In this document: positions 4,680 through 35,122 of the stretch, piece after piece
How positions within the stretch are numbered: the stretch's first letter is position 1
Layout: each line of letters opens with the position of its first letter
Assembly: GCA_030583825.1 (NCBI GenBank)
Contig: CP129477.1
Coordinates: forward strand, 694,294 to 758,293
DNA from: Candidatus Dojkabacteria bacterium
GTDB taxonomy: Bacteria; Patescibacteriota; Dojkabacteria; GCA-002793355
Direction of reading: 5' to 3'
Length of the DNA: 64,000 bases
Translations under genes and position numbers: made by a program
Notes under the pieces: model-generated
What the model was told of the DNA's origin: nothing
The model's database searches: none
The model's input: the letters and a program-made list of their open reading frames with translations, nothing else

Positions 4680-5906
4680 ATGACATTGCCCTGGCAGAAG
4701 AAAGCAAAGAAAAAAACGACAACGACGCCATCTCAATCAAAAGGTATGTTTGGAATTGCTCGTCCTACCGGTAAAAAGTCATACGCCGGAGAAAGAATGC
4801 AGAAAATGATCCGTGAAAGAACAGTGCTATTGCTCCGATTATTTGTAGTCGGTTCAATTGCAGGAATTGTCTTTCTTATTGTTGTGGGAACACTTGCAGG
4901 TGCGGCATTATCGCTAAAAACCGGCGAAAAACTTTCAATCGTAAGTGCTGCGGAAAACCTTGTAAGACAGTCTCCACTTGGACAGTATCTTCCAAGGGAA
5001 CCTGAAGCAACAAAGTACGATGTTATCGGACTACCAGGAGTTCCTGAATTTCCTCATAGTGAATTTATTTTTGCAGGAGCAGTCACGAGAACTCAGCAAA
5101 CCTTTGAAATTAACTTGCAGGGATATTCAACAACTGACCAACAGGAACTTTTTCGTTTTTTAAGTAATGGGCAAAGTGTTTACTTTCTTCCTGTAGGAAC
5201 TCGTTGGGCCGATGTCGTTGAATTTTACGAAACGGAACTTCCTGCAGCGGGGTGGAATCATGTTTTAAGTGTTGGAGTGGAAGATTTAGAACGTATTCCA
5301 GGCGAATTTTTTGTTAAGGAAAATAAAGGATTGCACGTATATTCTGTTTCAAACGATATTTGGTATGAATATATTACAAAAGAGCAGGCAGAAAATGGCC
5401 TAAAAGATAGAGTTGTGGCGTATAAAACAAAGCAATTACTTGTAGAATCTGCATCAGGAAATGAAACGCCGCAACAGTCGTGGTGGAAATTACGGTATAC
5501 AAATGAGTGGGAAATGACGGTAAGTAATCATATGATCCTTGGTGAGCCAATTGTGTCATTTAGAAACAAGAAAACCCCCGCATATTTGATAATTTCTCCA
5601 CATGCGAGGTACCGTGAAAAACCTGAAGATGTAGAATATTCATATTTGGAAAATGTCGCCAACGAGTACATGCGCGGCTGGTTAGCGACTCGTCCACCTT
5701 CGATGAGTATGGCTAATTTTCAAACAAATAAAATTACAATTGCCGATGCTAAAGCAGTTGAAGTAGTTTCTTCGAAGGATCAAGCTTACTTTGCATTTGT
5801 CATTAATAAAGAAAATAGCCTTTTATATGTAATTGAGTCGTTTCAAGATACAAATAGCGACTTTTATGAATATGTGAAGGGAAATGTTCGGACTACTAAA
5901 AAATAA
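4680..5906 (+). CDS. Hypothetical membrane-anchored protein
   Basis: The 408-aa ORF has a basic N-terminus followed by a single transmembrane helix (LLLRLFVVGSIAGIVFLIVVGTLAG) and a large extracytoplasmic domain. No recognisable motif was seen. Confidence 0.5.
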   Translation: MTLPWQKKAKKKTTTTPSQSKGMFGIARPTGKKSYAGERMQKMIRERTVLLLRLFVVGSIAGIVFLIVVGTLAGAALSLKTGEKLSIVSAAENLVRQSPLGQYLPREPEATKYDVIGLPGVPEFPHSEFIFAGAVTRTQQTFEINLQGYSTTDQQELFRFLSNGQSVYFLPVGTRWADVVEFYETELPAAGWNHVLSVGVEDLERIPGEFFVKENKGLHVYSVSNDIWYEYITKEQAENGLKDRVVAYKTKQLLVESASGNETPQQSWWKLRYTNEWEMTVSNHMILGEPIVSFRNKKTPAYLIISPHARYREKPEDVEYSYLENVANEYMRGWLATRPPSMSMANFQTNKITIADAKAVEVVSSKDQAYFAFVINKENSLLYVIESFQDTNSDFYEYVKGNVRTTKK

Positions 5907-25535: not shown

Positions 25536-26165
25536 TTGGATTTTAAAATGAGACTATTTTTGGCATCAGAAATCAAACACCCTGAAAGTATAAGAAAACT
25601 AATTGAGTATACGGGTGGTCTTGAAGGTAAGAAAGTTGCCTTTATCCCTACCGGATCAAATGGAGAAGTCGAGTTTGGAGACTGGAAAGGTGGGAGTTGG
25701 AAAGCAGCAAATAGTCTGGGTGCGGAAGTGAAAGCTGTTCAATTAGAAGATTACAAAAATTCTTCTGTGATTAAGGAACTCGAAGATCAAGATGTTATTT
25801 GGATGCATGGCGGAGTAACCGGCTACTTACTTTATTGGATAAGGAGATGTGAATTAGATAAACATTTGCCACGACTTTTAGCGACATCTCTCTATATAGG
25901 CTCGAGTGCAGGCTGTATGATCCTGGCAAAAGATCAAGATCTGGCTGAATGGTATATCGGAGAGCAAGAACCAGGAGCAAGCCTGATTCCCGGCTTGGGG
26001 TTGGTAGATTTTAACTTTTATCCGCATTACGAAGATCATTTGTATAACGAAGTTAAAGCGAAGTACAGGGGGAATAAAATGTACTTAGTAAAGGATGGCG
26101 AGGTTATTATTGTTGAAGATGGAAAGGTAAGGGTATTGGGAGAGGAAAGGATTATTACGTTATGA
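25536..26165 (+). CDS. S51-family peptidase (peptidase E / class I glutamine amidotransferase-like)
   Basis: VAFIPTGSNGE...WMHGG...YIGSSAGCMIL matches the PepE Ser nucleophile context. The 209-aa length fits. Confidence 0.6.
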   Translation: MDFKMRLFLASEIKHPESIRKLIEYTGGLEGKKVAFIPTGSNGEVEFGDWKGGSWKAANSLGAEVKAVQLEDYKNSSVIKELEDQDVIWMHGGVTGYLLYWIRRCELDKHLPRLLATSLYIGSSAGCMILAKDQDLAEWYIGEQEPGASLIPGLGLVDFNFYPHYEDHLYNEVKAKYRGNKMYLVKDGEVIIVEDGKVRVLGEERIITL

Positions 26166-26173
26166 CACCATCA

Positions 26174-26281
26174 GAAAAATAAAAAGGCGCCGCCACACGG
26201 CGGCAATAGCTTGAAGCTACGATTTCGGATAAACCTTGTTTGAACTCATAGTGCAATTCCAGATAGGTATCACCCAACTGT
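26174..26281 (-). ncRNA. tracrRNA: tracrRNA of the type II-A CRISPR-Cas system
   Basis: A minus-strand promoter is present, with -35 TTGATA (rc of 26311-26316), a 17-nt spacer and -10 TAGAAT (rc of 26288-26293). The anti-repeat GGGUGAUACCUAUCUGGAAUUGCACUAUGAGUUCAAAC (rc of 26237-26275) is imperfectly complementary to the CRISPR repeat and has a 2-nt bulge. It is followed by the nexus-like AAGGUUUAUCCG (compare SpCas9 AAGGCUAGUCCG) and the hairpin UAGCUU-CA-AGCUA. A terminal hairpin GCCGCC-GUGU-GGCGGC is followed by UUUUUAUUUUU. Confidence 0.75.
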
Positions 26282-26329
26282 GGTACAATTCTAACAAATA
26301 AGAAGTAACTTATCAACGATCACTGTATT

Positions 26330-29300
26330 ATGGCAAAATATTTAGGTTTAGATATTGGAACAAACAGTATTGGTTGGGCAGTTACAGATGAAAATTACAA
26401 CTTGTTAAAATATAACGAAACTCCTCTTTGGGGAATACATCTATACCCAGAAGCTAGTAATGCCAGCGAAGCTCGTGGGTATCGCTCAGCTCGCCGTGGT
26501 ACTCGTCGAAAAGCCTGGCGAATAAAAATATTACAAGAACTGTTTAATGAAGAAGTAGCGCAGGTTGATCCTGCGTTTTTTAGCAGAATTAGAGACAAAG
26601 AAGTCTATTCTTTGTTCAAGGATGATAAGGAATATTATGAGAAATTTCCAACAATACATCATTTAATTCTCTATTTACAAAAAATAAATGAGAGGCCTGA
26701 TATTCGGTATGTTTACCTGATGTGTTCTTATTATATGAAGCATAGAGGGCACTTCTACTCGAGCATAGATGAAAATGCTGATATCGAAAAAATTTTAGGT
26801 CTGCAAACTATTTTTGATGAGTTTCTTGAAGCTCTCAGGCTTCTTCCTATAGAGATATCCGATGTTAATATAAAAAATGTAGAGTCTGCGTTGAAACAAG
26901 AAAACGTGAGTAACAGGAAAAAGGCCTTAAAAGATGTATTATCAACAACCGATGATGAATTTAAAATCCTACCTGAGATTATAACGCTTTTGTCTGGAGG
27001 TAAAGCGAAACTACAAACTATCTTTCAAAACGAAGATCTTAAAAGTTTGTCTGTTATGGACACAGATCCTGAAAATGAGACAATGGCGGAGTTACAAACT
27101 GTACTAGGCGAGCAATTCGATATACTTCTAAAAGCAAAACAAATTACTGATTGGATTGTTTTATGTGATATTTTGAAAGATGCAAAGAGTATAAATGAAC
27201 AAAGACTTAACCTATATGAGGAGATAAAAAGTAAGAAAGAGCTTCGTGGAGAGAAATTAACTGAACACATGAAGGAAGAGCATAAGAAGAATCGAGTTAT
27301 TCCGTACCAATTACAGTGGAAAGATTTCAAAAAGGCGCTAAACAATATACAAAAGTTTTACCCTACTCTTGATGTCGAAAAGATAGGTCAACTATTCAAA
27401 CATAGAATTCCTTATTTTGTAGGGCCTCTTAAAGAAGATCAAAAAAATCGATGGAGTTGGATTAAAAAGAAAAATGATGAAAAAATTTACCCATGGAATT
27501 TCAATGAGGTTATAAATATTGAGGAGACACACTCAGGCTTTATAGAGAAAATGACCGCAAAGTGTACTTACCTCGTGGGAGAAGATGTGCTTCCAAAAGA
27601 AAGTATGCTCCATGCAAAGTATTTAATTCTCAACCAACTAAATAACCTTAAGATTGACGGTGAAAGAATTGATAATACCCTGAAACAGGAATTATTTCAA
27701 GATTTATTTGAAAAAGAATCAGGAACAGTTTCTTTAAAGAAAATCAAAGCTTGGTTGAAAAGTAAAAACCCTGCGTATAAAGATACAGAACTAACAGGTG
27801 TAGATACTACGATAGAAGGAACACTAAAAGCATATCATAATTTTAAGCCATATCTTGATAAGCTAAAGATGGGCGAGATAGAAGAGATTATAAAACGAAT
27901 AACAATATTTGGGGAAGAAAAGCAGAATTTAAAAAGTTGGATGGAAAAAACCTTTAATCATCTTGATGAAGAAGATATAAAGAAGATTTTACGATTTTCT
28001 TATAAAAAATATGCAAGACTTTCTAGAGAGTTTTTAGAAGGTATTATGTATGATGTCGAGGAAAGAGAATTAAGCATCATCCAGGCTTTGTGGGAGACGA
28101 ACAATAACTTGATGGAGCTGCTGTCTGATAAGTATGGATACGCTCTAAAAATAGAAGAATTTAATAAGAATGCCGTTAATAAAGCTACAACTCTTAATGA
28201 AAAGCTTGATGATTTATATATCTCAAATCGTGTTAAACGCTCAATTTTCAGAACACTTGCAGTGGTTAGTGAAATTATCAAAGCTATCGGTAAACCAGAC
28301 AAGATATTTATTGAAATGGCACGAGGAGAAGAGCTGAGTAAAAAAGGTAAGAAGACAAAAAGTCGCAAGGATGAGCTAAAAGAACTGTTGAGAGGCAATA
28401 AAGACCTACTAAACGAATTAGTGGGCAAAACAGATGATCAACTTCGTGGGAAAAAGCTATACCTCTATTTCTCTCAAATGGGAAAATGCATGTATACAGG
28501 CAAAACGATATCCCTTTCTTCTCTTAGTTCCGATAATTGGGATGTTGATCATATTTATCCTCGCTCGAAAGTCAAGGATGATAGCATCCGCAATAATCTT
28601 GTACTTGTAGATAAAAATGCCAATGGAGCAAAAACAGATAATTATCCATTACTTCCTGAGATACAGAATCGAATGTCTGGTCACTGGAATTTCTTGAAAG
28701 AAAAGGAATTAATTACCAATGAGAAATATTCTCGTCTGATGCGCAAAACTCCATTTACAGAAGATGAAAAAGTTAATTTCATTAATAGGCAATTAGTTGA
28801 AACAAGGCAAAGCACCAAAGCTATTGCCCAGCTTCTTAAGGAAAAATATAACGTAGAGATTGTTTATGTGAAATCCGAATTGTCCAGTGATTTTAGATAT
28901 ACTTATGAGATTCAGAAATGCCGTGAAATAAACGATTTTCATCATGCAAAAGATGCCTATCTAAATATCGTTTGTGGCGATGTCCATAATAGAGTATTTA
29001 CAAAAAATCCCAGAAACTTTATTAAGAAAGCAAATGATAGCAATTATACGATTAATCCTAAGGTTCTTTATAAAAGGCAATGGGATGGAACGGATATACT
29101 TTCCAGAATTAGGAAGACATTGAAAAGTAATCAAATTAAATACACAGAGATGATGTACGAACGTACAGGTTCATTCTGGGGAAAGACATTAGGCTTAATT
29201 CCTAGAAAAGGAAATATGACAGAATATTCTGAAAAGTCTTATGAATTATCAACAGCATTTTTTGCACTGGTTTCGTATGGGCCAGAAAGTAATAGAAAAA

Positions 29301-29914
29301 CAAAGTTATTGCCTGTTTATAACTACAAAATAGAAGAATTTTATAACGATGCAAATAAGTATTTTAATGGAACGCATAAGATGCTGGATAAAAGCGATTT
29401 AGATAATATAAAGTTTCTTCGCAAGGTAAAACTCGGTACCGTAGTTATTAAAAAAGGGATCCGCTATAGAATTACAGGCAATACCCATATGTTGCATGCC
29501 TATCAACTTACAATGCCATATGAACAAGAGAAATATTTCAAGAAGATAATTAAGGCCTTTGATAAAGATAATCCTAGACCAGAGGTACTTGTGAAAGAAG
29601 AGAATATAAAGTTATTTGAATTATTTAAAGGTAAACTGAGAGATTCCGTATATTCAAGGTTAAGCTCTTTGAACATTCAATTGAAATGGTTTGATAATAG
29701 TAAATTCGAAAGCCTTTCAATAAAAGAGCAAGCAGAATTTCTTAAAAATTCAATTAGCATGTTTACGGCAAATGCCGCAAAAGGTAATTTAAAGATTATT
29801 GATAAAAATGCTTCCGGTAATGTCGCTAATGGCCCTATGCCAAATGATTGCGATTACATTCTTGACCAATCTGTCACTGGACTGTTTGATAAGAAATATA
29901 GAGTGAAGGTATGA
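26330..29914 (+). CDS. cas9: CRISPR-associated endonuclease Cas9 (type II-A, 1194 aa)
   Basis: The N-terminal RuvC-I motif is LGLDIGTNSIGWAV. An Arg-rich bridge helix (ARRGTRRKAWRIKILQELF), the HNH motif (DVDHIYPRSKVKDDSIRNNLVLV) and RuvC-III (INDFHHAKDAYLNIV) are all present. The stop is TGA, overlapping the cas1 start. Confidence 0.95.
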   Translation: MAKYLGLDIGTNSIGWAVTDENYNLLKYNETPLWGIHLYPEASNASEARGYRSARRGTRRKAWRIKILQELFNEEVAQVDPAFFSRIRDKEVYSLFKDDKEYYEKFPTIHHLILYLQKINERPDIRYVYLMCSYYMKHRGHFYSSIDENADIEKILGLQTIFDEFLEALRLLPIEISDVNIKNVESALKQENVSNRKKALKDVLSTTDDEFKILPEIITLLSGGKAKLQTIFQNEDLKSLSVMDTDPENETMAELQTVLGEQFDILLKAKQITDWIVLCDILKDAKSINEQRLNLYEEIKSKKELRGEKLTEHMKEEHKKNRVIPYQLQWKDFKKALNNIQKFYPTLDVEKIGQLFKHRIPYFVGPLKEDQKNRWSWIKKKNDEKIYPWNFNEVINIEETHSGFIEKMTAKCTYLVGEDVLPKESMLHAKYLILNQLNNLKIDGERIDNTLKQELFQDLFEKESGTVSLKKIKAWLKSKNPAYKDTELTGVDTTIEGTLKAYHNFKPYLDKLKMGEIEEIIKRITIFGEEKQNLKSWMEKTFNHLDEEDIKKILRFSYKKYARLSREFLEGIMYDVEERELSIIQALWETNNNLMELLSDKYGYALKIEEFNKNAVNKATTLNEKLDDLYISNRVKRSIFRTLAVVSEIIKAIGKPDKIFIEMARGEELSKKGKKTKSRKDELKELLRGNKDLLNELVGKTDDQLRGKKLYLYFSQMGKCMYTGKTISLSSLSSDNWDVDHIYPRSKVKDDSIRNNLVLVDKNANGAKTDNYPLLPEIQNRMSGHWNFLKEKELITNEKYSRLMRKTPFTEDEKVNFINRQLVETRQSTKAIAQLLKEKYNVEIVYVKSELSSDFRYTYEIQKCREINDFHHAKDAYLNIVCGDVHNRVFTKNPRNFIKKANDSNYTINPKVLYKRQWDGTDILSRIRKTLKSNQIKYTEMMYERTGSFWGKTLGLIPRKGNMTEYSEKSYELSTAFFALVSYGPESNRKTKLLPVYNYKIEEFYNDANKYFNGTHKMLDKSDLDNIKFLRKVKLGTVVIKKGIRYRITGNTHMLHAYQLTMPYEQEKYFKKIIKAFDKDNPRPEVLVKEENIKLFELFKGKLRDSVYSRLSSLNIQLKWFDNSKFESLSIKEQAEFLKNSISMFTANAAKGNLKIIDKNASGNVANGPMPNDCDYILDQSVTGLFDKKYRVKV

Positions 29915-30798
29915 GCTGGCGTACTCTTGTTGTTACAGGGCGAGCAAAACTTGATTACCAACTTGGCTACATGGTGATCCGTAAAGATACAGAACAGCAA
30001 ATCTTTCTTGATGATGTAAATGTACTTATTTTAGAAAGTACAGCAATTTCATTGACAACCTATTTATTAAAAGAACTTGTGAATAAAAAGGTAAAGGTTG
30101 TTTTCTGTGATGACTTTCATAATCCTGCAGCAGAGCTAGCACCTTTTTATAATAATAAAATGTCTTCTGCCAACATAGAGCTCCAGATTGGCTGGAAAGA
30201 AGATATAAAGAAAAAAGTGTGGGCGGAAATCATAAAACAGAAAATCATTAATCAAGCGTTTGTTTTAGCAAAAAATGAACTAGTTGAGAAATCAAAACTA
30301 CTTTTAGAGTATGTAAAAGAAGTACAACTCGGTGATAGCACAAATAGAGAAGGACATGCTGCAAAAGTATATATGAATGCTCTGTTTGGGAATTCATTTT
30401 CCCGAGGACAAGATAATGAAATCAATTCAGCATTAAATTATGGTTATACAATACTTCTCTCAGCTTTTAATCGTGAAATTGTGGCCAGTGGTTATCTCAC
30501 TCAACTCGGTATAGCGCACCATAATACATATAATTATTTTAACCTGAGTAGCGATTTTATGGAGCCTGTTCGACCATTAATAGATTTATTTGTTAAGGAT
30601 TCTGACTTTAAAGAATTTGGGACAGAGCAAAAGCACCTGACCGTAGATATTTTAAACAGAGGAGTGAGGGTACGTAATGAGAAACAATATTTATCAAATG
30701 CCATTGCCATTTATGTGAAAAGCATTATCAATGTACTAAACAGCGACAAAGTAGAAGATATTAAATTTATAAATATAATGGAGGGTGAGCAGTTATAG
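29911..30798 (+). CDS. cas1: CRISPR-associated integrase Cas1 (type II)
   Basis: The 295-aa product carries EGHAAKVYMNALFG...LNYGYTILLSAFNREIVASGYLTQLGIAHH...DFMEPVRP with conserved Cas1 catalytic E/H/D positions. There is a 4-nt overlap with cas9. Confidence 0.9.
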   Translation: MSWRTLVVTGRAKLDYQLGYMVIRKDTEQQIFLDDVNVLILESTAISLTTYLLKELVNKKVKVVFCDDFHNPAAELAPFYNNKMSSANIELQIGWKEDIKKKVWAEIIKQKIINQAFVLAKNELVEKSKLLLEYVKEVQLGDSTNREGHAAKVYMNALFGNSFSRGQDNEINSALNYGYTILLSAFNREIVASGYLTQLGIAHHNTYNYFNLSSDFMEPVRPLIDLFVKDSDFKEFGTEQKHLTVDILNRGVRVRNEKQYLSNAIAIYVKSIINVLNSDKVEDIKFINIMEGEQL

Positions 30799-31108
30799 AT
30801 TTATGAGAATTATTGTTATGTTTGATATGCCTACAGATACTCTTCAAGAAAAGAGAGCGTATAGGTATTTTCGTAAGTATTTGGTTAAAGATGGATTTTT
30901 TATGATGCAGGAAAGTATATATGTCAAAATAGCAATTAACGCCGAATCTAGTAAGAGTATACTTAAGCGTTTAGAACGGAAAAAACCAGAATATGGGCTA
31001 GTTCAGATTATGCAAGTCACAGAAAGACAATTTGAGAAAATGATTTACCTAGTTGGTAAACCAATTAAGAAGGTAATTTCTTCAGATAAAAGACTAGTTA
31101 TTGTATGA
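30785..31108 (+). CDS. cas2: CRISPR-associated endoribonuclease Cas2
   Basis: The product is about 100 aa. MRIIVMFDMPTDTLQEKRAYRYFRKYLVKDGFFMMQESIYVK matches the Cas2 N-terminal beta-strand with catalytic Asp (MYDI-like). The probable true start is the Met at 30803. Confidence 0.8.
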   Translation: MSSYRFMRIIVMFDMPTDTLQEKRAYRYFRKYLVKDGFFMMQESIYVKIAINAESSKSILKRLERKKPEYGLVQIMQVTERQFEKMIYLVGKPIKKVISSDKRLVIV

Positions 31109-31773
31109 AACTACTATTGCCCCAAATTAATAACTCTTTCGATTTCGCTCAAAATAAAGTCAACAGGCTTGTGATAGAAAATTCCAGTGAATTTGCTAGA
31201 GTTATTCAAAAATTTAAAAATCAAGTTGATTTCGGTGAAAGTTATGCATCTTTATTTGATGATATAGTAGAACAAAATTTTACGAAATTAGTTGAGATCA
31301 TTTATTCTCCGATAGAGTTTAATATAAATACTCCCTTATTATTAAATAGCTTGCATAAGAACCTATCAATGGAAACTAGTAATGAACAATCTTTCTTAAA
31401 AACGGTAGAATTAAAAAGGCACATAGTAAACTATATACAAGACCTTCTCTATAATAAAGATGCAGATTTACTTTACGATGATGATCCTGATATTTCCAAA
31501 GTATTCAAAATGTTAGGGGTTAGATACAATGATGTATACGAAACAATTGTAGAAAAACTATTTAAGTTTCTAGTCGCAAGTCAAGAACTTGGGAGTAAAG
31601 AGATATTTTTATTTGTAAATCTCAGCGACTACTTATCTTCAGAGGAAAAAACAACTTTCTATAAAACAGTTCTTGCAAAAAACATAAAGATCTTTCTTAT
31701 AGATAGAAATTTTTATGAAAGAAATAGTTTAGAAAATCTTACTCTTATTGATAAAGATTTATGCGAACTATAA
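31105..31773 (+). CDS. csn2: Csn2-like protein (type II-A signature)
   Basis: The 222-aa product sits between cas2 and the array, where type II-A csn2 is found. The C-terminal region IFLFVNLSDYLSSEEKTTFYKTVLAKNIKIFLIDRNFYE parallels the short-form Streptococcus Csn2 ([35 protein letters not shown]). No Cas4-like Cys cluster or RecB motifs are present. Confidence 0.55.
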   Translation: MKLLLPQINNSFDFAQNKVNRLVIENSSEFARVIQKFKNQVDFGESYASLFDDIVEQNFTKLVEIIYSPIEFNINTPLLLNSLHKNLSMETSNEQSFLKTVELKRHIVNYIQDLLYNKDADLLYDDDPDISKVFKMLGVRYNDVYETIVEKLFKFLVASQELGSKEIFLFVNLSDYLSSEEKTTFYKTVLAKNIKIFLIDRNFYERNSLENLTLIDKDLCEL

Positions 31774-31915
31774 TGAGTTTCTCTTGATAAATTGGGAGGA
31801 ATATGATAGATTATGTTAAGGGAAGCTCTTTGATATTAAGTTGTTTTGGTTGCTCTATTTTTCATTTGCAGGTCTAATCAGCTTGTCCTCTATTCCTGTT
31901 AGTGAGGAATTTGAG
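31774..31915 (+). promoter_or_regulatory. CRISPR leader
   Basis: A 142-bp AT-rich non-coding stretch lies between csn2 and the first repeat. It ends with ATTTGAG directly abutting repeat 1, which equals the leader-anchoring motif described for Streptococcus type II-A arrays. Confidence 0.5.
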
Positions 31916-33205
31916 GTTTGAGAATAGTGCAATTCCAAAGGGGTATCAAACTCAAAAATCTGACGCATTGGAACATCTTCTGTTTGAGAATAGTGCAATT
32001 CCAAAGGGGTATCAAACACATAATGCGTTTATTAAAATTTAATTTACGTTTGAGAATAGTGCAATTCCAAAGGGGTATCAAACCGCTACAACGAGCGACT
32101 CAAAGTGCTTGGAGTTTGAGAATAGTGCAATTCCAAAGGGGTATCAAACAGGCATTTTTACCTTTGTTCCGTCCCAGTGGTTTGAGAATAGTGCAATTCC
32201 AAAGGGGTATCAAACTTTTACCTTACAGGTGCTCTCTAACGGATAGTTTGAGAATAGTGCAATTCCAAAGGGGTATCAAACCATGGAATATTCTTGTAAA
32301 AATCCCTTGTTGTTTGAGAATAGTGCAATTCCAAAGGGGTATCAAACAGTTCGAGCTATTGTTGCTGCTCTTCTAGCGTTTGAGAATAGTGCAATTCCAA
32401 AGGGGTATCAAACCAAAAGGACGTACATAAATGCAAGGTTCGAGTTTGAGAATAGTGCAATTCCAAAGGGGTATCAAACCGGTTACATGCGCTTTATCAC
32501 CCGCTGAAGGTTTGAGAATAGTGCAATTCCAAAGGGGTATCAAACTCTGCGTGATATTTATTCCACCATTCCTTGGTTTGAGAATAGTGCAATTCCAAAG
32601 GGGTATCAAACCATCACCATCACCATTTGGTTTAATTTCTAGTTTGAGAATAGTGCAATTCCAAAGGGGTATCAAACTGCAACATCAGCTTTAAATTTAC
32701 CCTCTTTGTTTGAGAATAGTGCAATTCCAAAGGGGTATCAAACTGCAACATCAGCTTTAAATTTACCCTCTTTGTTTGAGAATAGTGCAATTCCAAAGGG
32801 GTATCAAACTCACAGATGATGCACTTATTTATGGATTTGGTTTGAGAATAGTGCAATTCCAAAGGGGTATCAAACCTTACATTGGACGCATGTTTTACGT
32901 GTATCGTTTGAGAATAGTGCAATTCCAAAGGGGTATCAAACTACAACTCTTTGCTCAAGTGGAGGAAGAAAGTTTGAGAATAGTGCAATTCCAAAGGGGT
33001 ATCAAACACCCTATAATCGTATACGGTGCTCTCTTGAGTTTGAGAATAGTGCAATTCCAAAGGGGTATCAAACACCAGAGTATCTTGTTACAAAAGGTGA
33101 ACTGTTTGAGAATAGTGCAATTCCAAAGGGGTATCAAACAATCTGTGTGTAAAGTATGTTGACCGTTCCGTTTGAGAATAGTGCAATTCCAAAGGGGTAT
33201 CAAAC
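31916..33205 (+). CRISPR. CRISPR array with 20 direct repeats (36 bp) and 19 spacers (30 bp)
   Basis: The repeat GTTTGAGAATAGTGCAATTCCAAAGGGGTATCAAAC recurs every 66 bp from 31916 to 33170. Every repeat read appears identical, including the terminal one. Spacers 12 and 13 (32678-32707 and 32744-32773) are identical (tgcaacatcagctttaaatttaccctcttt). Confidence 0.97.
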
Positions 33206-33251: not shown

Positions 33252-33695
33252 ATGCCGACAATCAAAAACCCACAACGCAATAAACAGCAAACCCTTCTTA
33301 AAAACAAGTCAGAAATCACTATAATCAACGACGTTCCTGCGGGATTTCCATCTCCTGCCAGCGATGCAATTCAACAGTCCCTCGACCTAAATCAGCTACT
33401 CATTCAGCATCCAGCAGCGACTTTCTTTGTGAAAGTGCTCGGACACTCCATGCAAAACAGTAATATTCATTCTGGTGACATATTAGTAGTGGATCGCGCG
33501 GTAACTCCGGAACATAATCACATCGCTGTCGCCGTCATTGATGGAGAATTTACAGTTAAACGCATTGTCAAAAGAGGGGGGAAGCTATTTCTTGTCCCGG
33601 AAAATGAGAATTTTCACGCAATCGAGATAAAAGATGGAATGAATGTTGAGATTTGGGGAGTTGTTACTTACGTCATCCATTCCCTCAAGCTGTAA
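33252..33695 (+). CDS. umuD: UmuD-like S24 peptidase (translesion polymerase accessory subunit)
   Basis: The product shows AGFPSPASDAIQQSLDLNQLLIQHPAATFFVKVLGHSM (Ser nucleophile) and DGEFTVKRIVKR (Lys general base), with UmuD/LexA C-domain spacing. It lacks an N-terminal HTH, so it is UmuD rather than LexA. Confidence 0.75.
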   Translation: MPTIKNPQRNKQQTLLKNKSEITIINDVPAGFPSPASDAIQQSLDLNQLLIQHPAATFFVKVLGHSMQNSNIHSGDILVVDRAVTPEHNHIAVAVIDGEFTVKRIVKRGGKLFLVPENENFHAIEIKDGMNVEIWGVVTYVIHSLKL

Positions 33696-33737
33696 AATTA
33701 AATAATTTCGGCGTTAACTGCGTATGCGCCGCATTCA

Positions 33738-33755
33738 ATGTATAATCTTATACAT
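33738..33755 (+). promoter_or_regulatory. Palindromic candidate operator overlapping a -10 element upstream of umuC
   Basis: ATGTATAAtcTTATACAT is a perfect 8/8 inverted repeat containing TATAAT (33741-33746). It lies between umuD and umuC. Confidence 0.3.
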
Positions 33756-33826
33756 CTCTCTTGGTGCTCCTTGTTGCCTTGAAATTCTCTTAATTTTCCA
33801 ACTTGATAATAATAGTAAATAAAACA

Positions 33827-35122
33827 ATGTCTAGACCAACAACACAATACGTCCTCATAGACTGCAACAACTTTTTTGTGTCCTGTGAGCGTATATTTAA
33901 CCCAAAACTATGGAACAAACCAGTCGTTGTGCTATCCAGTAATGATGGATGTATTGTCGCACGGTCAAACGAAGCAAAAGCATTGGGGATTCCCATGGGA
34001 GCACCAGTGTTTAAACATGCCGAAATGTTGGAAAAGAATAATGTGTTTCAGATGTCATCAAATTTTCCGTTGTATGCAGATATTTCACGAAGAGTGATGG
34101 AAATCTTGCACGAATTCTCCGATTCTGTAGAGGTGTATTCTGTAGACGAAGCATTTATCAAATACAAGCCTGGAACAAAAGAAAACCTTAAGCAAACCTT
34201 TCGTGAATTAAGAAAAAAGATTTATCAGTGGACAGGTATTCCTGTCTCAATAGGCATAGCACCGACTAAAACGTTGGCAAAAGTCGCGAGTGAAAAGGCA
34301 AAAAAAAGAAAAGATCTCGAAGGTGTCGCAATCTGGAGTGATTTAGGTGTCCACCAAGAAGTGCTCAAAACGGTCGAGGTGGGTGATATCTGGGGAATTG
34401 GTTGGAATCATGCCGCGCTACTAAAAAGACATGCAATATTTACTGCGTATGATTTGACCCAGCTTTCAGACAAAACCATTCGAAAACTACTCACCATCGG
34501 TGGACTGAAAACAGTTACAGAGCTCAGAGGAACCGTATGTATTGACATTGAAACAATTACTCAACCTCGAAAGGGACTGACAAGTTCGCGTAGTTTTGGG
34601 CGAGCAATAACAACGTTAGAAGAGCTTGAAGAAGCAGTTTCTCTTTTTGCAACTCGAGTAGGAACAAAGCTGTTTGAGCAAAAGTCCGTTGCACTCTATC
34701 TTTCTGTATATATTAGAACAAGCAAATATAATCCGGAGAACCGAAATATTTCAAAAGTCGCAACTGTTCGCCTAGACGAGCCGACGTTTTACATTCCGCA
34801 TATAATAACTGCCGCAAAGAAAGCATTGAAAAGTATTTATATGGACGGATATACATATAAAAAAGCAGCAGTATACTTACAGGATATTTGTCCAGCTGAT
34901 AGTGCACAGCAAAGTTTTCTAGGAGGATTTGAAGCAGACCAAATGGTGAGCAAAAAGCAGGAAGCGATTCTTTCTACTGTAGAAAAAATTAATACAAAGT
35001 GGGGGAGTCTTACAATTAAACCCTTGGCAATTGGAGAAAAACAACTTTGGAAACCAAAACAGGAAAAAGTATCACCGGCCTATACAACAAGTTGGAGTGA
35101 TTTGGTTACAATTCGGCTTTAG
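33827..35122 (+). CDS. umuC: Y-family DNA polymerase (UmuC / Pol V catalytic subunit)
   Basis: The product reads MSRPTTQYVLIDCNNFFVSCERIFNPKLWNKPVVVLSSNDGCIVARSNEAKALGIPMG, the Y-family palm with catalytic D and E, and has a little-finger C-terminus. The track ORF starts at 33803, but the Met at 33827 is more likely. Confidence 0.8.
   Translation: MSRPTTQYVLIDCNNFFVSCERIFNPKLWNKPVVVLSSNDGCIVARSNEAKALGIPMGAPVFKHAEMLEKNNVFQMSSNFPLYADISRRVMEILHEFSDSVEVYSVDEAFIKYKPGTKENLKQTFRELRKKIYQWTGIPVSIGIAPTKTLAKVASEKAKKRKDLEGVAIWSDLGVHQEVLKTVEVGDIWGIGWNHAALLKRHAIFTAYDLTQLSDKTIRKLLTIGGLKTVTELRGTVCIDIETITQPRKGLTSSRSFGRAITTLEELEEAVSLFATRVGTKLFEQKSVALYLSVYIRTSKYNPENRNISKVATVRLDEPTFYIPHIITAAKKALKSIYMDGYTYKKAAVYLQDICPADSAQQSFLGGFEADQMVSKKQEAILSTVEKINTKWGSLTIKPLAIGEKQLWKPKQEKVSPAYTTSWSDLVTIRL

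Follow-up and report, generated by a model that had tools for sequence, protein, structure and literature searches.

Organization of the CRISPR-Cas9 locus

The window, i.e., the whole 64-kb stretch of DNA that was analysed, belongs to a 1.09-Mb genome labelled Candidatus Dojkabacteria by NCBI. It harbors four cas genes followed by a leader and a CRISPR array, all on the plus strand, and a small-RNA unit on the minus strand immediately upstream of cas9:

25536-26165, plus strand: open reading frame of the Peptidase_S51 family, convergent with the small-RNA unit
26175-26281, minus strand: small-RNA unit
26330-29914, plus strand: cas9, 1194 aa (TIGR01865, 1.1e-226, full length)
29911-30798, plus strand: cas1 (TIGR03639)
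30785-31108, plus strand: cas2 (TIGR01573)
31105-31773, plus strand: csn2 (TIGR01866)
31774-31915, plus strand: leader, 142 bp, on the csn2 side of the array
31916-33205, plus strand: CRISPR array, 20 identical 36-nt repeats and 19 spacers of 30 nt

The cas genes were identified with NCBIfam models, and all four reading frames are intact and full length. The system is assigned to type II-A because cas9, cas1, cas2 and csn2 are all present and adjoin the array. The N-terminus of Cas9 (MAKYLGLDIGTNSIGW) aligns with those of its homologues, and the catalytic residues D8 and H741 fall within invariant alignment columns. No Shine-Dalgarno-like sequence precedes the ATG of cas9 (AACGATCACTGTATT-ATG; 26312-26329), whereas the majority of the related cas9 genes that were inspected have one of the GGAGG or GAGG type 5-12 nt upstream. 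The layout of the locus is a textbook one and its only unusual aspect is the host, a member of the candidate phyla radiation (CPR) according to the NCBI label.

The small-RNA unit is housed in the 164-bp gap between the Peptidase_S51 reading frame and cas9. It is divergent from cas9, and its predicted start lies 48 nt from the cas9 ATG. The accessions of the eight flanking and cas proteins that were looked up are consecutive (WKZ29808-29815), which leaves no room for an annotated protein-coding gene between that of the peptidase and cas9. An identical sequence is found on a second assembly, a Logan contig from DRR779146. With a GC content of 31-34% compared with about 40% on both flanks (window positions 26000-32000), the cas operon forms a low-GC island. 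This composition, together with nearest Cas9 proteins that stem from an Oscillospiraceae MAG and unbinned metagenome contigs, suggests that the operon was acquired from outside. Directly after the array reside umuD-like (Peptidase_S24 / Pol V subunit) and umuC-like (IMS family) genes (33252-35122, plus strand). A signature motif of RNase III was not found upon six-frame translation of the 64-kb window, a share of the 1.09-Mb genome at which this result is uninformative.

An anti-repeat upstream of cas9

The small-RNA unit comprises the following elements, all on the minus strand and listed in the direction of reading:

26311-26316: -35 hexamer TTGATA (promoter scan; TTGACA or TTGACT at the equivalent place in relatives)
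26288-26296: extended -10 element TGtTAGAAT (promoter scan and sequence; TG precedes the -10 hexamer)
26238-26275: anti-repeat, 38 nt, GGGUGAUACCUAUCUGGAAUUGCACUAUGAGUUCAAAC (duplex scan, cofold and covariation over five loci)
26261 to 26248: upper-stem core, within the anti-repeat
26247 to 26245: bulge GAG, within the anti-repeat
26244 to 26238: lower stem, within the anti-repeat
26226-26237: nexus AAGGUUUAUCCG, two G-C pairs closing a 5-nt loop (aligns to the RF02348 nexus)
26225 to 26221: linker AAAUC, 5 nt, preceding hairpin 1
26206-26220: hairpin 1, GUAGCU-UCA-AGCUAU, 6 bp (MFE folds)
26204 to 26189: hairpin 2, GCCGCC-GUGU-GGCGGC (MFE folds)
26175-26205: hairpin 2 as intrinsic terminator, (U)GCCGCC-GUGU-GGCGGC(G), then CC and UUUUUAUUUUU (terminator scan and folds)
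26185 to 26175: U-run UUUUUAUUUUU, after GCC

The terms for the modules of the guide handle (lower stem, bulge, upper stem, nexus and hairpins) are reportedly those of Briner et al. 2014.

Read on the plus strand, positions 26238-26275 form a degenerate copy of the repeat (GTTTGAACTCATAGTGCAATTCCAGATAGGTATCACCC), which by eye matches the array repeat (GTTTGAGAATAGTGCAATTCCAAAGGGGTATCAAAC) at 29-30 of 36 positions and contains a 2-nt insertion. This copy had already been recognized in an earlier reading made from the sequence alone (hereafter the sequence-only reading), but its start had been placed at 26237 rather than 26238. When spacer 1 plus repeat was folded together with the predicted 104-nt RNA (RNAcofold), the anti-repeat paired with the repeat GUUUGAGAAUAGUGCAAUUCCAAAGGGGUAUCAAAC through a lower stem of 7 bp (GUUUGAG:UUCAAAC, the last pair being G.U), an upper stem of 14 bp and, past a 3x3 loop, 8 bp more. 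Between lower and upper stem, the tracrRNA contributes 3 unpaired nt (GAG) and the crRNA a single one, so that this asymmetric loop amounts to a net bulge of 2 nt. Both 3' hairpins remain intact. The proposed duplex geometry is thus retained, while the "2-nt bulge" is more accurately an asymmetric internal loop, either 1x3 or 2x4.

A scan of duplex energies along the whole window and on both strands ranked the anti-repeat best (-40.3 kcal/mol), about 6 standard deviations away from the background (-12.4 +/- 4.6 kcal/mol), and the next-best site outside the array reached -29.0 kcal/mol. A second strong anti-repeat was not found on either strand of the 64-kb window. The sequence-only reading had named a better anti-repeat elsewhere, for example between cas9 and cas1, as the finding that would speak against it; the scan yielded none, and the space between these two genes is absent because they overlap. 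Note that the distal part of the anti-repeat, with its 3x3 loop and terminal mismatches, is more degenerate than that of the relatives, which counts against a tracrRNA. In the S. pyogenes tracrRNA, the distal duplex is the part removed by RNase III processing.

Downstream of the nexus, both the small hairpin and the terminator hairpin that had been proposed appear in the MFE fold. The terminator (26205-26188, minus strand) has 7 pairs, 6 of them G-C, and outranks every other terminator-like site in the scanned 8 kb (25.5-33.5 kb). Its U-run starts 3 nt past the stem, a second point that counts against the tracrRNA assignment.

Conservation and covariation in related loci

The nearest relatives of the Cas9 are 52-55% identical and originate from metagenomes and one Oscillospiraceae MAG (L001). 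All of their loci carry the small-RNA unit with the order promoter, anti-repeat, nexus. As in the window, it is divergent from and directly upstream of cas9 in L003, L005 and L007. In L001 it lies about 750 nt upstream of cas9 (5140-5290, minus strand), with a 115-aa open reading frame without Pfam match in between. In L033 and L039 the whole unit from promoter to terminator is inverted and co-directional with cas9, some 200-330 nt upstream (plus strand). The internal order is therefore conserved while the position relative to cas9 is not, which marks the unit as autonomous in transcription.

For the analysis of covariation, the repeat of each locus was joined to its own anti-repeat and pairs were counted over five loci. 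For repeat and anti-repeat, 93.7% of the cells were paired and 8 of 35 pairs had changed on both sides. None of 500 shuffles reached these values, and sliding the partner by 1-3 columns left 25-42% paired. The difference from these shuffled and slid controls shows that repeat and anti-repeat co-evolve.

L033 has exactly the nexus sequence of the window, AAGGUUUAUCCGAAAUCG, and in L003, L005 and L007 the nexus loop holds an extra helix of 5-6 bp that itself co-varies (by eye). The nearest clade (L001, L003, L005, L007 and L033, with Cas9 proteins of about 1190-1250 aa) shares the repeat family GTTTGAGAR... with the window. It differs in that its anti-repeats are nearly perfect, in the extended nexus helix of three members, which the window lacks, and in the 3' end, where a single hairpin (GRGCY-UUGAUA-RGCYC) serves as terminator. 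The window has two unrelated hairpins instead and in this respect resembles more distant Clostridia and Leptotrichia loci.

In loci whose Cas9 is 31-38% identical (Clostridia, Leptotrichia, Helcococcus), the tracrRNA is again divergent and upstream of cas9. The nexus pairs GG/CC are replaced by AA/UU in distant loci, with 94% of the cells paired; since this swap could reflect few independent events, it is modest evidence. The layout of the tail, a 5-nt linker, hairpin 1 and an abutting hairpin 2, is common to five distant loci according to single-sequence folds. Hairpin 1 starts 5 nt after the nexus in each of these five, although the stem sequences are unrelated, and hairpin 2 has counterparts with the loops GUGU, GUG, GAGU or AUUG in distant relatives. 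The distant loci add a third hairpin as terminator, whereas in the window hairpin 2 itself precedes the U-run. RNAalifold gave no consensus structure for a MAFFT alignment of the 3' tails from 9 loci because this alignment is not structure-aware, and the tails were folded singly instead.

The tracrRNAs of 11 related loci, but not that of the window, were used to build a profile HMM, which matched positions 26272 to 26177 of the minus strand from the anti-repeat through the tail (nhmmer, E = 1.1e-12). When the model covered lower stem, nexus and linker only, its single significant match was at 26245 to 26220 (E = 5.6e-5).

Predicted promoter and start of the small RNA

The promoter TTGATA-17-TAGAAT (26316-26288, minus strand) agrees with the consensus at 10 of 12 positions in the promoter scan, in support of the earlier claim of a promoter just 5' of the anti-repeat. 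Based on the usual spacing of about 7 nt, transcription is predicted to start near 26281, 6 nt before the anti-repeat, where about 5 nt had been proposed. Promoter-like sites are common in the AT-rich DNA of this region, with 49 in the scanned sequence as against 30 +/- 5.5 in shuffles, so that the promoter match alone is weak evidence.

On the plus strand, an extended -10 element TGgTACAAT (26281-26289) overlaps the -10 hexamer of the small-RNA promoter (26288-26293, minus strand) by 2 bp. The promoter scan predicted no further promoter-like site on this strand between 25983 and 26939.

The CRISPR array, its leader and its orientation

Eighteen of the spacers are distinct, spacers 12 (32678-32707) and 13 (32744-32773) being identical (TGCAACATCAGCTTTAAATTTACCCTCTTT), and the last repeat of the array is not degenerate. 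The leader contains two elements relevant to the orientation of the array, both on the plus strand:

31784-31812, plus strand: promoter-like site TTGATA-17-TAGATT (promoter scan)
31909-31915, plus strand: leader end ATTTGAG, abutting repeat 1

The motif ATTTGAG, which we take to be the leader-anchoring sequence of S. pyogenes-type II-A systems, closes the leader in nearly all related loci down to about 35% Cas9 identity (L001, L003, L006-L008, L010-L014, L016, L017, L024, L030 and L032), and L027 has TTTTGAG. Plus-strand transcription of the array is supported by the position of the leader on the csn2 side, its promoter-like site, the ATTTGAG motif and an upstream unit in which nexus and terminator occur on the minus strand only.

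A minus-strand promoter-like site, TTGATA-17-TATTCT, is present in every repeat (31921-33203; 9 of 12 consensus positions) and would be antisense to the crRNA; it is probably a chance match. Transcription of the array from the minus strand, with repeat-internal promoters as in type II-C systems, was considered and rejected. In that case, a plus-strand tracrRNA would lack nexus and terminator and enter cas9 directly. In addition, the leader, including its promoter-like site and the ATTTGAG motif, sits on the csn2 side, the -10-like part of the repeat is not retained in the repeats of the relatives (by eye), and the family profile matches the upstream unit on the minus strand only.

A comparison of the whole array with GenBank phages returned only matches to Vibrio phages at E = 0.1, which we regard as noise. 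For spacers 1, 3, 12, 9 and 4, the terminal 20-24 nt at the 3' side had no exact match in IMG/VR. None of the spacers targets the window itself.

About 30 nt upstream of repeat 1, the leader carries a hairpin of 6 bp (GCAGGT-CTAATCA-GCTTGT; 31868-31886, plus strand). Over five loci its loop is conserved as CTWATCA, 96.7% of the stem cells are paired and 4 of 6 pairs have changed on both sides, as compared with 33-53% paired in slid controls. Several of the pairs form as G.U on the plus strand but not on the minus strand, pointing to an element that operates at the RNA level within the pre-crRNA leader. A different hairpin occurs at a similar place of the leader in several more distant loci, e.g., L010, L012 and L016 (by eye).

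Comparison with known tracrRNAs

The usual place of the tracrRNA gene in type II-A loci is upstream of cas9, and all four features used as in-silico criteria by Chylinski et al. 2013 (PMC3737331) are present in the unit. The anti-repeat is documented by the duplex energy of -40.3 kcal/mol, the cofold with 7 + 14 + 8 bp and the 8 of 35 co-varying pairs. The unit is intergenic, between the end of the Peptidase_S51 reading frame (26165) and the start of cas9 (26330), and a promoter and a Rho-independent terminator, which are supportive though not essential, are predicted in the correct orientation on the minus strand. The modules of the Cas9 guide handle follow each other in the proper order of lower stem, bulge, upper stem, nexus and hairpins.

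With the Rfam model RF02348 the RNA scored 19.3 bits (E = 0.73), short of the 70 bits set as gathering threshold, although the alignment spans the model from position 1 to 92 of 92 and corresponds module by module. In our reading RF02348 covers a narrow set of tracrRNAs, and the shortfall weakens the claim of membership in this family, not that of being a tracrRNA.

In S. pyogenes, the tracrRNA gene occupies the same place, on the opposite strand and upstream of cas9 in a cas9-cas1-cas2-csn2-leader-array locus. Among PDB entries, chains of SpCas9 rank second in similarity to the Cas9 of the window (about 1e-105). Similarities to the SpCas9 scaffold include a lower stem of 6-7 bp, the bulge (GAGU on the tracrRNA side in the window, AAGU in SpCas9, and GA on the repeat side) and two hairpins, the second of which is the terminator (cf. 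the Rfam alignment). The likeness that the sequence-only reading had seen between the nexus and its quoted SpCas9 counterpart is borne out, since AAGGUUUAUCCG agrees with AAGGCUAGUCCG at 9 of 12 positions. The repeat sequence differs, and the Cas9 of the window is about 175 aa shorter. S. pyogenes also produces a long-form tracrRNA (tracr-L), a natural sgRNA that represses the cas promoter. The duplex scan revealed no repeat-like minus-strand segment upstream of the anti-repeat, the other best sites (>= -27 kcal/mol) lying elsewhere. With a predicted start no more than about 6 nt ahead of the anti-repeat, there is no indication of a tracr-L, and autoregulation by a long form was rejected for want of a supporting feature in the scan.

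The nearest relative with a solved structure is FrCas9 from Faecalibaculum rodentium (PDB 9JWK, E = 1.8e-160; PMC12926199), whose sgRNA reads GUUUGAG...AUGAGUUCAAAU-CAGG...AUCCGAAC. It shares with the RNA of the window the repeat start GUUUGAG, the lower stem GAGUUCAAA(U/C) with the bulge, GAGUUCAAAU and the nexus frame AGG...AUCCGAA. FrCas9 has 1372 aa, and its RNA differs in the sequence of the upper stem and in the 3' tail. Its nexus carries an inserted helix (CUC-CUA-GAG) as in L003, L005 and L007, whereas that of the window is minimal.

Assignment of the small-RNA unit

We consider it highly probable that the stretch from 26281 to 26175 on the minus strand is the tracrRNA gene of the type II-A CRISPR-Cas9 locus. 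The sequence-only reading had arrived at the same assignment and is supported by the unique anti-repeat, the covariation, the conserved nexus and tail, the profile match (E = 1.1e-12) and the intact cas genes.

In principle, the unit could also be a decayed relic, either a leftover repeat or a former tracrRNA gene in an acquired locus, which has lost its expression or its function and whose promoter and terminator matches play no part today. The mismatches in the distal anti-repeat, which exceed those of the relatives, would fit such a history, as would the lack of a visible Shine-Dalgarno sequence before cas9, the failure to find protospacers in GenBank phages and, for five spacers, in IMG/VR, and a low-GC cas island (31-34% as compared with about 40%) in a lineage where CRISPR-Cas is seldom retained (PMC6509639). 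Decay is difficult to reconcile with four intact, full-length cas reading frames, 20 identical repeats and 18 distinct spacers. Furthermore, the segments of the RNA that would be bound by Cas9, namely the lower stem, the bulge, the upper stem of 14 bp, the nexus and the hairpins, are intact and match the family profile with E = 1e-12, and the mismatches lie in the distal duplex that, by analogy with S. pyogenes, RNase III would remove. The relic explanation therefore appears very improbable to us.

Even less credit is due to the idea that the relevant product arises from the plus strand, with the repeat-like copy residing in the 5' UTR of cas9 or in read-through from the peptidase gene and acting in cis, e.g., as a decoy for a tracrRNA encoded elsewhere. 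Read-through towards cas9 is plausible, since no plus-strand promoter is predicted in the interval scanned around the gap and the terminator hairpin lacks a T-run on this strand. Against such a product stand the absence of any other anti-repeat from the window and the fact that nexus, hairpins and U-run are sensible on the minus strand only. Moreover, the inversion of the block in L033 and L039 and its distance of about 750 nt from cas9 in L001 demonstrate that a position at the 5' end of cas9 is not conserved, while the internal order is. Finally, a chance resemblance, or a mere terminator of the convergent Peptidase_S51 gene (25536-26165), can be regarded as effectively refuted. The hairpin does lie 24 nt past the peptidase stop codon, but the T-run is found on the minus strand only, the duplex energy deviates by about 6 standard deviations from the background, and neither the covariation with the repeat nor the match to a profile built without the window would be expected for such an element.

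Proposed function, guide design and context

That the tracrRNA is transcribed, where exactly its ends lie, that RNase III processes it and that it binds Cas9 and supports interference we infer from sequence features. The sigma-70-type promoter (26316-26288, minus strand) would start a transcript of about 100 nt near 26281, with its end in the U-run (26185-26175). The anti-repeat, on the 5' side of this transcript, would pair with every repeat of a leader-driven, plus-strand pre-crRNA, and RNase III would cut the resulting duplexes. Expected products are crRNAs of about 40 nt ending in GUUUGAGAAUAGUG... In the remaining handle, the lower stem GUUUGA:UCAAAC and the upper stem, with the bulge between them, would be joined by the nexus, hairpin 1 and hairpin 2/terminator. 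This handle would be held by Cas9, which would find its DNA targets by means of the spacer part of the crRNA.

The delineation of the tracrRNA completes the parts list of the locus. It had been claimed to be enough for designing an sgRNA. This holds for the scaffold, N20-GUUUGAGAAUAGUGCAAUUCC-GAAA-GGAAUUGCACUAUGAGUUCAAACAAGGUUUAUCCGAAAUCGUAGCUUCAAGCUAUUGCCGCCGUGUGGCGGCGCCUUUUU, which in fused form folds as expected and is meant for a compact, 1194-aa Cas9 of the SpCas9/FrCas9 lineage. It does not extend to the PAM, since no protospacers were found in GenBank phages or, for five spacers, in IMG/VR.

As an identification the case is ordinary, and the understanding of tracrRNAs is unchanged by it. 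CRISPR-Cas systems are rare in the CPR (2.4% of OD1/OP11 genomes, as cited in PMC6509639), and the presence, in a genome of 1.09 Mb with a Dojkabacteria label, of a type II-A unit that is complete down to its tracrRNA is therefore a modestly useful data point for work on defence and gene transfer in CPR organisms. Cas9 has already been reported from human-associated Saccharimonadia (PMC10031880) and Cas12a from Dojkabacteria (PMC6509639); our literature search returned no paper on this Cas9 clade, its repeat or any type II system of Dojkabacteria.

Possible shared control of tracrRNA and cas9

The overlapping -10 elements at 26281-26293 may constitute a shared divergent promoter for cas9 and the tracrRNA gene. 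A broader proposal, in which the two genes have such a common control region and the system is a Clostridia-type II-A system that was horizontally acquired and is still used by the CPR bacterium, is rather unlikely as a whole. If it were true, TGgTACAAT would be the only promoter-like element for cas9, RNA polymerase would fire one way at a time, and the ratio of scaffold to nuclease would be tied to a single 30-bp element. The core TACAATTYTAA is also present in L005.
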